DNA of 11,469 nt from the IMG/VR virus record IMGVR_UViG_2660238126_000001, positions 1-11,469 of that record. One strand, given 5' to 3'. The notes beneath the pieces are model-generated. The model was not told the origin of the DNA, did no database searches, and saw only the letters and a program-made list of their open reading frames with translations. Both the position numbers and the translations under genes were made by a program. Origin of the DNA: a virus (taxonomy: Duplodnaviria; Heunggongvirae; Uroviricota; Caudoviricetes). Within the stretch, counting starts at the first letter, position 1; every line of letters begins with the position of its first letter. This document shows positions 7,691 to 10,984 of the stretch, one piece after another.

Positions 7691-7906
7691 ATGACACCTC
7701 AGCAAGAAAACGCCCTTCGCAGCATTGCCCGTCAGGCTAATTCTGAAATCAAAAAAGCCAGACAGCAGTTTCCGGATAAAAACGTCGATGACATTTGCCG
7801 TAGCGTACTAAAGAAGCACCGCGAAACGGTAACGCTGATGGGATTCACACCGACTCATTTAAGCCTGGCGATCGGCATGTTGAACGGCGTCTTTAAGGAA
7901 CGGTGA
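7691..7906 (+). CDS. Small ORF, lambda orf61-like (71 aa from ATG 7691)
   Basis: Translation MTPQQENALRSIARQANSEIKKARQQFPDKNVDDICRSVLKKHRETVTLMGFTPTHLSLAIGMLNGVFKER with gggg about 10 nt upstream. The track's 7625 start would read through a hydrophobic leader and is less likely. Confidence 0.65.
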   Translation: MTPQQENALRSIARQANSEIKKARQQFPDKNVDDICRSVLKKHRETVTLMGFTPTHLSLAIGMLNGVFKER

Positions 7907-7928
7907 ACATGAAAAGCAAAATCATCAG

Positions 7929-7949
7929 GGAGCTACAGGCTCCTTTTTT
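7929..7949 (+). terminator. Weak intrinsic terminator-like hairpin
   Basis: ggagc-tacag-gctcc followed by tttttt. Only a 5-bp stem. Confidence 0.4.
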
Positions 7950-8004
7950 ATTATTCGCATTCACCCTCAAGCGTATTAACCAACAATTCAGGGATTAATG
8001 AAAG

Positions 8005-8226
8005 ATGGCAGACATAATTGATTCAGCATCAGAAATTGAAGAATTACAGCGCAACACAGCAATAAAAATGCGCCGCCTGAACCACCAGGCTATATCTGCC
8101 ACTCATTGTTGTGAGTGTGGCGATCCGATAGATGAACGAAGACGACTGGCCGTTCAGGGTTGTCGGACTTGTGCAAGTTGCCAGGAGGATCTGGAACTTA
8201 TCAGTAAACAGAGAGGTTCGAAGTGA
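8005..8226 (+). CDS. DksA/TraR-family C4 zinc-finger protein (73 aa), lambda orf73-like
   Basis: CxxC...CxxC spacing in ...HCCECGDPIDERRRLAVQGCRTCASCQEDLE..., typical of TraR-type proteins. Length and position match lambda orf73 as I recall it. Confidence 0.8.
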   Translation: MADIIDSASEIEELQRNTAIKMRRLNHQAISATHCCECGDPIDERRRLAVQGCRTCASCQEDLELISKQRGSK

Positions 8227-8474
8227 GCGTAATTCACTCTCAGGCACTGCGTGAAGCGGCAGAGCAGGCAATGCATGACAACTGGGGATTTGACGCGGAC
8301 CTTTTCCATGAGCTGGTAACACCATCGATTGTGCTGACACTGCTGGATGAACGGGAAAGAAACCAGCAGTACATCAAACGCCGCGACCAGGAGAACGAGG
8401 ATATTGCGCTAACGGTGAGGAAACTGCGTGTTGAGCTGGAGACAGCAAAAATCAAAACTCAACGAGCAGCGTGA
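8223..8474 (+). CDS. Hypothetical coiled-coil-like protein (83 aa) in the ea22 position, terminated by TGA with a further open in-frame stretch downstream
   Basis: ATG (GTG?) at 8223 overlaps the orf73 stop. The translation is charged and helical-looking (...ERERNQQYIKRRDQENEDIALTVRKLRVELETAKIKTQRAA). I cannot confirm homology to Ea22. Confidence 0.55.
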   Translation: MSVIHSQALREAAEQAMHDNWGFDADLFHELVTPSIVLTLLDERERNQQYIKRRDQENEDIALTVRKLRVELETAKIKTQRAA

Positions 8475-8772
8475 GTAGAAGGTGTTATCTCGGATGGAAG
8501 TAAGCGTATTGCTGAACTGGAGGCCTGGGTTGAATACACAAGAGCTGCATACGTAAGAGCAAAAGACAAGGGAGATTTGATCAGAGTTATTACCCGACAA
8601 CCAACGGGATTTTACGCTTACGTACCATGTAATTAGGAATCCTTGAAGTGGCAGCCTAACTGCGGATACACTGAAATGGCGATTTGGTAACATGTTTCGC
8701 ACAAGGCTGTTACTACGCTTAAAGATAATCAGCCATGATTAAACGCTTTGTAAAAAGTAAAAGGAAATTACA

Positions 8773-9387
8773 ATGAAAAAATCAATACTAATTTTAGGGC
8801 TTACGTTAATTGTCTCATCTCAAATACCATCGGCAATGGCAAAAAATGAATCAAGACTTTGGGTTGTTGTTGATCGAACGGAAAGACATACCTGCCCTTC
8901 AAGTAAATGTGGAGTGGCTGGGAAACTATTTTTCAGGGAAGGCGTAGATTTTCTAGAAAAAAAAGGTGAATGGGTTCGTATAACTGAGCCATATTCAGCC
9001 TCATGTGTGGGAGGGGAAAGCGAATATATTAAAGAAGGTAATAAATCCTGCACAAGAAAAAACGGAATCGTCAATGGCAAGTTTTCAGAATGGGTTAAAC
9101 TTAGTGATCTTAGCAGTGAAAGGCCATCAGATCCTGCTGAAAATGCGAGCGGAGATGATACTTTAATCAAAGGATCTGATGACTACCGTATATACAAAAA
9201 AGAGTTTTCTTCGGCAGCTAGGAAGTTAATAAACGAAGGGGTCTGCACGGAAAGCGACTTTAAGGAAATCGGAGGGTGGATGGCATCAAGCAATAAGGGG
9301 AAAAACATCTATTTCACATATTGCGGAGGAATGACGTTGTCGAACAGAATATACCTAGACGTTAAAAGTGGAAAGACTTTTAGATAA
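8773..9387 (+). CDS. Secreted/periplasmic protein (204 aa) with a Sec signal peptide and an SH3b-like N-terminal region; AT-rich moron
   Basis: Signal peptide MKKSILILGLTLIVSSQIPSAMA followed by KNE. SH3b-like pattern in RLWVVVDRTERHTCPSSKCGVAGKLFFREGVDFLEKKGEWVRITEP. Seven Cys in the mature part. RBS aaggaaa precedes the ATG. Not part of lambda. Confidence 0.75.
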   Translation: MKKSILILGLTLIVSSQIPSAMAKNESRLWVVVDRTERHTCPSSKCGVAGKLFFREGVDFLEKKGEWVRITEPYSASCVGGESEYIKEGNKSCTRKNGIVNGKFSEWVKLSDLSSERPSDPAENASGDDTLIKGSDDYRIYKKEFSSAARKLINEGVCTESDFKEIGGWMASSNKGKNIYFTYCGGMTLSNRIYLDVKSGKTFR

Positions 9388-9458
9388 TATGATATTACCA
9401 ATGACAGTATTAATTTAATGCCTCCATAGAATTATCTCTAGGAAGTATGTATAAGAAA

Positions 9459-9492
9459 AGCCCGCACAATGAGCTGCTGCGGGCTTTGTGTT
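9459..9492 (+). terminator. Intrinsic terminator after the secreted-protein gene
   Basis: agcccgca-caatgagctgc-tgcgggct hairpin followed by ttgtgttatt. Confidence 0.6.
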
Positions 9493-9740
9493 ATTCGCCA
9501 TATTTTATGAAGCAAATACGACACTATAGATAATTAAGCGTTGCTGGTTGTCGATTCCTCACTCACTCCTGTTGATGGCTCTCTTCTTGTATGTGCCATT
9601 GAAGGGTAATATCGAGTAAAAAGATACCGGAAGTATCCGCGCCGCCATGATTGTCTTTCTCCTAATGCAGGAAAAGCAGAATGGCTAAATCATCAGCAGA
9701 GCGCAAAGTCGATCAGAGAGCCAAGCAAGCATCATCCGGT

Positions 9741-10019
9741 ATGCGTAAGCTGGAGCTTGTACTTGATGCTCAGGAAATTGAAATGCTGGATCGTAACTGA
9801 GCCACGCGCCGCTTCAGGCATGCGCCTTACGAGTTTGGTGAGTACATCGCGTTACTGAGCCGCCAGGATGATGCACGTGTGCGCTGGCGTATAAAATCGA
9901 TCAGCAGAAAACGTTGCGATAAGTGCGGCGAGAGAGTTCCTGTTAATTCATGCCCGTGTAATGGTGACTCACAATGCTGGGTGACCAAAGGCTGGCACGA
10001 AACAAAATTAATGATATAA
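9741..10019 (+). pseudogene. ea8.5: Ea8.5-like homeodomain/zinc-ribbon protein interrupted by an in-frame TGA at 9798..9800
   Basis: The frame reads MRKLELVLDAQEIEMLDRN*ATRRFRHAPYEFGEYIALLSRQDDARVRWRIKSISRKRCDKCGERVPVNSCPCNGDSQCWVTKGWHETKLMI*. The 72-codon segment after the TGA has no in-frame ATG and carries the Cys cluster. Total length (92 codons) and position match lambda Ea8.5. Confidence 0.5.
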
Positions 10020-10025
10020 ATCTCT

Positions 10026-10037
10026 GTGACATGTCAC
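10026..10037. promoter_or_regulatory. Perfect 12-bp palindrome gtgacatgtcac immediately 5' of the RBS of the 142-aa ORF
   Basis: Exact inverted repeat, followed by ggagg (10038..10042) and ATG 10048. Candidate operator or RNA hairpin. Confidence 0.4.
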
Positions 10038-10047
10038 GGAGGCGGCA

Positions 10048-10476
10048 ATGAAATTAGACCAGCAATATCTAAAAGATCTACTTATCGCATTCGAAAAAAC
10101 TCATGGCCCTGACACGATGCTTAGTGAACTAGAGGATAATGGCTTTAATAGATATGACCAAAATTTTATTTTCCATATGCGATTATTATGCGACTACGAA
10201 TTAATAGTCAGGGTTGATGGAAAACCTGGGTTCGGTCATATAATGTCCAACGAGTTAGGGGAAGGTGTTGGATATAGTTGGATCGAAGTACCACTGAGGT
10301 TGACAGCAAGAGGGCATGATTTTATTGCTGACTTGCGTCAAAAGGAGGTCTGGCAAACTATAAAAACAAACTTTAAGGATGAGGGAATTAGTACACTAAT
10401 AAGTGTTTCAAAATCACTAGCAAAAGGCTTTGCAAGGAAAAAGATAAAAGATATTACAGGAATAGATATTGAATAA
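10048..10476 (+). CDS. Hypothetical cytoplasmic protein (142 aa); AT-rich moron inserted between the ea8.5 and orf55 homologues
   Basis: Strong RBS ggagg 5 nt upstream of the ATG. Translation MKLDQQYLKDLLIAFEKTHGPDTMLSELEDNGFNRYDQNFIFHMRLLCDYELIVRVDG.... Lambda has only a short spacer here as I recall. Confidence 0.8.
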   Translation: MKLDQQYLKDLLIAFEKTHGPDTMLSELEDNGFNRYDQNFIFHMRLLCDYELIVRVDGKPGFGHIMSNELGEGVGYSWIEVPLRLTARGHDFIADLRQKEVWQTIKTNFKDEGISTLISVSKSLAKGFARKKIKDITGIDIE

Positions 10477-10558
10477 TTCTTAGCATCAGCAACTACTGCC
10501 TTTGGTGGAAATTATATCTGAACTCGCTACGGCGAGTTTTGTTTTATGGAGATGATAA

Positions 10559-10726
10559 ATGCACTTCCGAGTCACAGGTGAATGGAATGGAGAACCATTC
10601 AACAGAGTTATCGAAGCAGAGAACATCAATGACTGCTATGACCACTGGATGATATGGGCCCAGATAGCACATGCAGACATAACCAATATTCGAATTGAAG
10701 AACTGAAAGAACACCAAGCCGCCTGA
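10559..10726 (+). CDS. Small ORF, lambda orf55-like (55 aa)
   Basis: Translation MHFRVTGEWNGEPFNRVIEAENINDCYDHWMIWAQIAHADITNIRIEELKEHQAA*, in the position between ea8.5 and xis. Below the length cut-off of the ORF track. Confidence 0.65.
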   Translation: MHFRVTGEWNGEPFNRVIEAENINDCYDHWMIWAQIAHADITNIRIEELKEHQAA

Positions 10727-10738
10727 TGGCGGTTTTTT
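10718..10738 (+). terminator. Intrinsic terminator overlapping the orf55 stop
   Basis: gccgcc-tgat-ggcgg hairpin followed by tttttt. Confidence 0.6.
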
Positions 10739-10765
10739 CTTGCGTGTAATTGCGGAGACTTTGCG

Positions 10766-10984
10766 ATGTACTTGACACTTCAGGAGTGGAACGCTCGCCA
10801 GCGACGCCCAAGAAGCCTTGAAACAGTTCGTCGATGGGTGCGCGAATGCAGGATATTCCCTCCTCCGGTTAAGGATGGAAGAGAATATCTGTTCCACGAA
10901 TCAGCGGTAAAGGTTGACTTAAATCGACCAGTAACAGGTAGCCTTTTGAAGAGGATCAGAAATGGGAAGAAGGCGAAGTCATGA
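10766..10984 (+). CDS. xis: Excisionase Xis (72 aa)
   Basis: Translation MYLTLQEWNARQRRPRSLETVRRWVRECRIFPPPVKDGREYLFHESAVKVDLNRPVTGSLLKRIRNGKKAKS matches lambda Xis from memory. Confidence 0.96.
   Translation: MYLTLQEWNARQRRPRSLETVRRWVRECRIFPPPVKDGREYLFHESAVKVDLNRPVTGSLLKRIRNGKKAKS

Follow-up and report, generated by a model that had tools for sequence, protein, structure and literature searches.

Among the described systems closest to the gene analyzed here are the morons, units of promoter, gene and terminator that lie between conserved phage genes, and the accessory genes of the lambda exo-xis region, namely ea22, ea8.5 and orf55 to orf73. Like the gene analyzed here, the latter are non-essential and AT-rich, lie in the variable exo-xis region, are flanked by terminators and are found in some relatives only (PMC8614690). 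Roles in transcription have been proposed in the exo-xis literature for these neighbouring genes (PMC8614690). The window (the whole stretch of viral DNA that was analyzed, 11,469 nucleotides) is the early-left arm of a lambda-like prophage, displayed with pL transcription running from left to right. Its gene order starts with a cI-like repressor, two ORFs in the rex position, an N-like gene, sieB (on the opposite strand), gam, bet and exo. Small exo-xis genes, a TraR/DksA-like gene, an Ea22-like fragment and a 204-aa ORF with a signal peptide follow, and the order ends with a UmuD-like fragment, a phrog_536 gene, a 142-aa ORF, orf55, xis and int. The features around the 142-aa ORF are given in Table 1.

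Table 1. Coordinates of features at the 142-aa ORF and its borders (positions in the window).
Feature	Start	End	Strand	Remarks
phrog_536-family gene	9681	10019	+	112 codons, Cys-rich; PHROGs annotation 'transcriptional regulator'; pseudogene here
Predicted RNA hairpin	10021	10042	+	9-bp stem, lineage-specific extension of the palindrome; UCUCU pairs with GGAGG and would sequester the Shine-Dalgarno sequence
Perfect 12-bp palindrome GTGACATGTCAC	10026	10037	.	conserved element flanking phrog_536 genes on the 3' side; marks the left border of the cargo slot
Shine-Dalgarno sequence GGAGG	10038	10042	+	5 nt before ATG
DUF2513 gene (PF10711, phrog_585)	10048	10476	+	142 aa; winged helix-turn-helix domain and three C-terminal helices
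Intrinsic-terminator-like hairpin and U-tract	10520	10549	+	within sequence common to lambda
orf55	10559	10726	+	lambda homologue, downstream neighbour of the 142-aa ORF

The 142-aa ORF was initially described as an AT-rich insertion relative to lambda. It is indeed absent from canonical lambda at this position and is AT-rich, with a GC content of 36.1% compared to 49% in the upstream ORF, 46% downstream and 44% in the window; the GC content falls at the palindrome, the left edge of the cargo slot. The event itself looks different from the one proposed. In a sensitive blastn search, lambda covers 26% of window positions 7900-10600, in two flanking pieces only, which span 1475 bp of lambda versus 2701 bp here, and homology to lambda picks up again at position 10511, the right edge of the cargo slot. 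Since lambda aligns only to both flanks of this interval, the alignment identifies the segment with the 142-aa ORF as a mosaic replacement of the 3' part of ea22 and of ea8.5, not as a simple insertion. E. coli ATCC 8739 carries the stretch 9400-10760 in a remnant prophage at att-lambda (99.9% identity), and the plaque-forming phage Chlobot carries it at 97.7%, with the 142-aa ORF intact. Of 5426 complete E. coli genomes, 140 contain at least 80% of this stretch, and homologues of the ORF occur in many Enterobacterales.

The ATCC 8739 prophage (L002, 3139261-3148151) is missing the immunity region and N and carries two IS1 insertions; its DUF2513 gene, orf55, xis and int are still intact. Elsewhere in the window, two overlapping ORFs of 185 and 250 aa (1520-2077 and 2074-2826) occupy the rexA/rexB position just after the cI-like gene. 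The shorter belongs to phrog_2017 and has a weak DUF6978 match, while the longer belongs to phrog_1960 and contains DUF1828; they are candidates for a prophage exclusion pair. Near the start of the 185-aa ORF, at 1563-1576, is a perfect 14-bp palindrome, ATAAAGTACTTTAT. The 204-aa ORF (8773-9387, 39% GC; phrog_8310, with weak SH3_3 and LPAM matches) starts with a signal or lipoprotein-like sequence and is presumably the one that the initial annotation had called a first AT-rich insertion. Finally, a short fragment at 9541-9609 resembles the C-terminal part of UmuD or of an S24 peptidase; RefSeq has a partial 'DNA repair protein' there in ATCC 8739, and the Chlobot annotation has a 105-aa 'UmuD-like' ORF.

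The 142-aa ORF with its closely spaced GGAGG, and the perfect palindrome directly upstream of it, are both present as first described, the stop codon of the ORF being TAA at 10474-10476. In an HMM search, the protein matches PF10711 (DUF2513) with 42.9 bits against a gathering cut-off of 29.6, residues 2-115 covering profile positions 1-100 of 100, and it matches phrog_585 with E = 2e-34. Its homologues form 113 clusters, nearly all of which carry PF10711 as a precomputed domain, and the family has 1457 representatives. The identical protein is found in RefSeq as WP_000762730.1, 'DUF2513 domain-containing protein'. Across 37 homologues 18 columns are invariant, and pN is 0.14-0.18 compared to a pS of 0.75-0.85, which is saturated. 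Given the number of homologue clusters, the Pfam match above threshold and the low pN relative to the saturated pS, the ORF is a real gene under purifying selection, far beyond chance. As judged by its profile matches, the protein belongs to an already catalogued, uncharacterised family. No match to it was found in NCBIfam or, at E <= 10, in a PDB sequence search; among the defence-protein HMMs of PADLOC-DB 2.0, none of the families matches at E <= 1. A literature search for DUF2513, PF10711, phrog_585 and the accession numbers found no relevant paper.

The protein is hydrophilic (GRAVY -0.34, pI 5.8) and has no N-terminal hydrophobic stretch, in agreement with the earlier description of a hydrophilic protein without a signal peptide. 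Its predicted structure consists of a confident winged helix followed by three C-terminal helices; the Pfam model ends at residue 115, and the conserved C-terminal helices reach residue 137. The winged-helix domain has a pI of 5.0 and a net charge of -6, the median pI of the DUF2513 family being 5.5. A cluster of conserved residues is formed by H43, R45, R84, T86 and H90. A structure search with Foldseek returned almost exclusively DNA-binding regulators as neighbours of the model, with E values of at least 0.06 and identities of 10-20%, i.e. a resemblance to winged-helix regulators at the level of the fold. The protein has no MarR or PadR match in Pfam.

The gene upstream of the 142-aa ORF, which had been called Ea8.5-like, belongs to a different family. 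Both halves of this broken ORF match phrog_536 in a PHROG search. BLASTP against lambda Ea8.5 gives E = 24 and hhalign a probability of 0.2%, while PF20735 matches lambda Ea8.5 but not the phrog_536 protein, such that both the Ea8.5-like assignment and membership in PF20735 are rejected and the earlier label is one of position only. The gene ends with a stop codon at 10017-10019, and alignment with intact homologues places an in-frame TGA (9798-9800) at the position of an invariant cysteine, Cys40; RefSeq flags the ATCC 8739 gene with 'internal stop'. The same nonsense allele is carried by several E. coli prophages (L070, L074, L075 and L096), and the gene is intact in Chlobot, in L071 and L079, and in p55 of phiV10. 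The homologues of phrog_536 form 394 clusters, all annotated as hypothetical, and have six invariant cysteines. A Pfam search with the phrog_536 protein finds no family, and its AlphaFold model has low confidence (pLDDT 58, too poor for a fold search).

The window contains 4 perfect 12-bp palindromes compared to 2.9 +/- 1.7 in shuffled sequences, and thus the presence of the palindrome is by itself no more than chance; its conservation is beyond chance. Among loci with a DUF2513 gene behind phrog_536, at least 14 different upstream sequences preserve all 12 bases, even where protein identity falls to about 60%. The spacers on either side, one from the stop codon to the palindrome and the other from the Shine-Dalgarno sequence to the ATG, vary freely. 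A purine-rich Shine-Dalgarno sequence abuts the palindrome in every one of these loci. We also used 78 IMG/VR loci picked by phrog_536 homology alone, which are close relatives and not independent, breadth being given by other, more diverse loci. The palindrome lies at the gene end in 77 of these 78 phrog_536 genes (75 exact copies and 2 with one mismatch) and 37 of the loci have a second exact copy, whereas a DUF2513 gene comes next in only 21. After phrog_536 and the palindrome there may also be a terminator and no cargo (L006), an unrelated gene (L147, L156, L188, L189, L205, L207, L220-L222 and L253), or a DUF2513 gene at a distance of 70-500 nt (L131 and L127). Conversely, DUF2513 genes in other contexts, namely other phage slots and integron cassettes, do not have the palindrome upstream. 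This distribution shows the palindrome to track phrog_536 rather than DUF2513, and it speaks against the initial proposal of an operator for the 142-aa gene.

A scan of IMG/VR for GTGACATGTCACGG gave at least 120 stretches, and the swapped-half control GTCACATGTGACGG gave 87. (The swapped-half counterpart of GTGACATGTCAC is GTCACATGTGAC; the 16-bp form is CCGTGACATGTCACGG.) Among the matches listed, the motif lies outside ORFs of at least 80 aa in 62 of 118 loci compared to 9 of 87 controls (p = 1.5e-10), or, counted by flank families and again among the matches listed, in 30 of 59 compared to 8 of 58 (p = 2.4e-5). A phrog_536 gene is present in 44 of the 118 motif-selected stretches and in none of the 87 controls (p = 5e-13, among the matches listed). 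The association is strong but, on the loci seen here, not exclusive, because the palindrome with a hairpin also sits between tail genes M and L, with no phrog_536 gene in the fetched stretch (see below). As an element, the palindrome is real and conserved, and it seems not to have been described before; no paper containing GTGACATGTCAC was found when the literature was searched for the 12-mer.

The order of elements differs between slots. L006 has phrog_536, palindrome and terminator; in other genera phrog_536 and the palindrome are followed by the Shine-Dalgarno sequence, the DUF2513 gene and a terminator of its own; and the window has the phrog_536 pseudogene, palindrome, Shine-Dalgarno sequence, DUF2513 gene and a lambda-type terminator. 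Thus, the cargo sits between palindrome and terminator. In several cases the cargo is an unrelated gene that begins 9-12 nt behind the palindrome and takes the GG(A)G next to it as Shine-Dalgarno sequence. The stop codon of phrog_536 is often inside the palindrome; a rule that its TGA is always embedded there was rejected, since the stop precedes the palindrome in phiV10 p03 and in the window. A palindrome regulon in this phage type was also rejected: the window has 1 copy at up to 2 mismatches, and Chlobot has one exact copy with near-matches at chance level.

Copies of the palindrome in phiV10 and its relatives lie at other gene ends as well. The phiV10 protein p55 is a phrog_536 homologue, 87% identical to the Chlobot allele, and a copy with one mismatch lies at the stop of p55. 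Two further copies in phiV10 are exact, and each is found where convergent genes meet, within a few bases of an annotated rho-independent terminator (positions in L352: 2262-2273, 19493-19504 and the record ends). In prophages like phiV10 and epsilon15, exact copies bracket the terS-terL module (L147, L155, L206, L213, L238, L259 and L262), one copy being at the phrog_536 stop and the other 3-4 nt from the terminator after terL; the latter abuts a slot that holds different morons in reverse orientation. In another prophage type, between the lambda-type tail genes M and L, the palindrome is followed by a terminator-like hairpin at L211:2790, L237:2696 and L191:5756. In this case the stop codon of M is inside the palindrome. 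Palindrome and hairpin may form a small composite unit that occurs independently; a megablast search of this tail-gene context against GenBank phages found nothing. At a further junction, just downstream of phrog_536 and the palindrome (L147:1250-1300, L259:5720-5780, L220 and L262), promoter-like hexamers overlap a perfect LexA box (TACTGT-N8-ACAGTA) that precedes an ORF of 85-88 aa, which suggests that this junction is under SOS control. The palindrome itself was rejected as a LexA box (CTGT-N8-ACAG), because the window reads CTGT-N8-ACGG and because conservation across loci runs opposite to that of a LexA box, the inner 12 bases being fixed and the outer ones variable. Spacing and the pattern of conserved positions also led to the rejection of a CRP-like site.

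The family to which the 142-aa protein belongs is found in several settings. In E. coli, Enterobacter, Cronobacter-type and Yersinia-type prophages, the DUF2513 gene follows a phrog_536 gene, the pair being located in the exo-xis region in E. coli and downstream of the replication genes in Yersinia-type prophages. A subfamily of about 50% identity has its place between the lysis genes and terS; it is preceded by its own promoter-like region, in which there is an imperfect inverted repeat, GGCATTCACTGAGTGCC. Overall, at least three variable slots of temperate phages hold DUF2513 homologues; relatives are present in only 2 GenBank phage records but in about 150 IMG/VR contigs. Five members of the lysis-terS subfamily (L008, L013, L134, L137 and L138) share a conserved block, GGCATTCACTGAGTGCCTGTGATAATGCTA, about 30-60 nt upstream of the DUF2513 start, which contains an imperfect 17-bp inverted repeat abutting an extended -10-like sequence, TGTGATAAT. 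The upstream repeat of this subfamily may be an operator, and would fit autoregulation by a DNA-binding protein.

Outside phages, Vibrio, Marinobacter and Rhodanobacter have homologues (about 35-49% identity) that each form a single-gene integron cassette between two attC sites, of the VCR type in Vibrio, and loci from Gallionella and Herminiimonas have similar attC-like flanks (cassette loci L016, L019, L020, L037, L007 and L017, also L005 and L028). The attC sites were recognised by direct reading of the flanks; a repeat search missed them in two Vibrio loci (L020 and L037). The DUF2513 domain is also the N-terminal part of fusions with TIR_2 or with a CAP12/Pycsar-type TIR domain, PF10137 (P0140, P0243, P0261-P0265 and P0269, also P0207, which is weak). 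These fusions are a small clade from short metagenomic contigs, and their TIR domain is joined to other N-terminal modules in thousands of relatives. In an anecdotal survey of 8 distant chromosomal loci, 5 adjoin hsdR, a HepT/MNT toxin-antitoxin pair, SMODS, YoeB or an integrase. Taken together, these settings suggest that the protein needs no fixed partner to function, travels as cargo and tends to be found near conflict systems.

Several explanations of the 142-aa gene and of the palindrome were weighed. The most direct is a dimeric repressor that binds the palindrome before its own RBS and so autoregulates. The winged-helix fold resembles that of MarR/PadR dimers, and the palindrome does abut the Shine-Dalgarno sequence wherever a DUF2513 gene directly follows phrog_536, but we consider autoregulation very unlikely: 57 of the 78 phrog_536 loci have the palindrome without DUF2513 next, to which L006, L127, L131, L147 and L156 can be added, DUF2513 genes in other slots and in cassettes are without it, Chlobot has just the single copy, the would-be DNA-binding domain is acidic, and no promoter that it could regulate is called at this position. 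That the palindrome acts as RNA, i.e. as a hairpin that hides the Shine-Dalgarno sequence and ties translation of the ORF to that of the upstream gene, is somewhat less improbable, though still doubtful. An RNA structure controlling translation was the other possibility named in the initial annotation, and in this lineage a local 9-bp stem that would bury GGAGG is predicted, at -10.8 kcal/mol; a single nucleotide separates the stem base from the upstream stop codon. Against this, the energy is unremarkable (z = -1.6; 15 of 200 shuffles fold as well), and by our reading of the alignment the extension of the stem beyond the palindrome is not kept in other lineages. The core of 12 bases is invariant and never covaries, variants changing one side only (L104 and phiV10); the invariance by itself cannot separate a DNA from an RNA reading, and taken with the one-sided variants it fits sequence recognition better than selection for a stem. 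The upstream gene is moreover a pseudogene here, and therefore any coupling would be lost. No Rfam 15 family matches at 10000-10060; the only hit is a sub-threshold Thr_leader at 9401-9494 (E = 0.44, 21 bits versus 55). At the far end of the scale, we find it hardly credible that the ORF is decaying, functionless junk in a cryptic prophage. The neighbouring phrog_536 and UmuD-like genes are already broken and the ATCC 8739 prophage is an IS1-riddled remnant, but the intact ORF of a plaque-forming phage, the recurrence of the stretch in E. coli genomes, the low pN and the invariant columns all point the other way.

The main rival to a role as conflict cargo is that the protein is an ordinary transcription factor of the MarR/PadR type, which reprograms host or phage genes elsewhere. 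We regard this as unlikely, yet as deserving more weight than the explanations above. It agrees with the identity of the structural neighbours, with the inverted repeat in the promoter-like region of the lysis-terS subfamily and with the transcription roles proposed for the exo-xis neighbours (PMC8614690). On the other side, the acidic median pI of the family argues against it, as does the use of the same domain as the N-terminal module of TIR effectors, and in lambdoid loci no conserved operator accompanies the gene. The gene also moves singly between phages, integrons and phyla, and therefore its DNA target would have to be universal or be carried along.

We tentatively favour the conflict-cargo reading, to which we give slightly less than an even chance: the 142-aa protein would be a lone mobile cargo with a role in phage-host conflict, exerted through ligand binding by its winged helix. 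Because the family is found in several phage slots, in integron cassettes and in TIR fusions, the gene appears as self-sufficient cargo rather than a locally autoregulated repressor. In the proposed mechanism, a self-contained, moron-like DUF2513 gene would occupy a variable exo-xis slot between the palindrome at the 3' end of phrog_536 and the terminator before orf55. No sigma-70-type promoter is called on the + strand at 9300-10900, and by eye the only candidate is a weak CTGGCA-N17-TATAAA. Since there is no convincing promoter of its own, we infer that the gene is transcribed with the N-antiterminated early-left (pL) operon; in ATCC 8739, it may be silent because the remnant prophage is without the pL region. 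Translation would start from the GGAGG abutting the palindrome. The protein would then act alone, probably as a dimer, with its winged helix binding a nucleic acid, a nucleotide-like molecule or a partner protein. As suggested by genomic context and the rare TIR fusions, its role would probably be in phage-host or phage-phage conflict (exclusion, defence or counter-defence) rather than in regulation of its own locus. The modelled winged helix is a generic fold, also that of ordinary transcription factors, and this counts against the conflict-cargo reading. With its occurrence as lone cargo in phages and integrons and its TIR fusions, DUF2513 would be an inexpensive and sensible choice for a phage-challenge or anti-defence screen.

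As for the palindrome, our best guess, drawn purely from co-occurrence, is that it is a binding site of the phrog_536 protein, or else part of a composite with the terminator. A bolder and rather improbable extension is that GTGACATGTCAC and the Cys-rich phrog_536 protein constitute an undescribed system of site and binding protein in enterobacterial temperate phages, which would mark the boundaries of cargo slots. The sites would always be at the phrog_536 3' end and often directly beside intrinsic terminators, and the system would insulate transcription units or promote the exchange of cargo, DUF2513 being one such cargo. The DUF2513 protein could, in this extension, be a free-standing sensor domain of TIR effectors that acts as a decoy or sponge. 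It should be noted that a palindrome beside an RBS is not necessarily the operator of that gene. A recurrent 12-bp box is exposed at gene ends and terminators in many enterobacterial prophages, and if it is a protein-binding or recombination site, it bears on how the modules of phage mosaics are delimited.

Among known sites, the closest to the palindrome are those of MatP and SlmA. The MatP site, matS, has 13 bp (GTGAC[AG]N[TC]GTCAC), and prophages are reported to be without it (PMC3603311). Its half-sites, GTGAC and GTCAC, are identical to those of the palindrome, whereas the centre has 3 bp in matS and 2 bp in the palindrome; the latter (GTGAC-AT-GTCAC, 12 bp) is thus one base shorter than the matS pattern and was rejected as a matS site. 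The 12-bp SlmA site, GTGAGTACTCAC, has the same length and the same outer GTGA...TCAC as the palindrome, and differs in the inner four bases. With respect to the 142-aa protein, the MarR/PadR/HxlR regulators share its three-helix bundle and beta wing, followed by helices that could mediate dimerisation; unlike these, the protein is acidic, resembles them only at the level of the fold and has no assignable operator. The YjcQ family (PF09639) is a relative of DUF2513 and PHROG 585. In some TIR effectors DUF2513 stands in the place of an N-terminal sensor or adaptor module, whereas the 142-aa protein has no effector domain. It also differs from the exo-xis set: it has no sequence relative among the lambda exo-xis proteins, no promoter of its own was detected and its upstream gene is phrog_536. 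Finally, like a moron, the gene has a deviant GC content compared to its flanks (36% versus 46-49%), is absent in lambda and is present in relatives.
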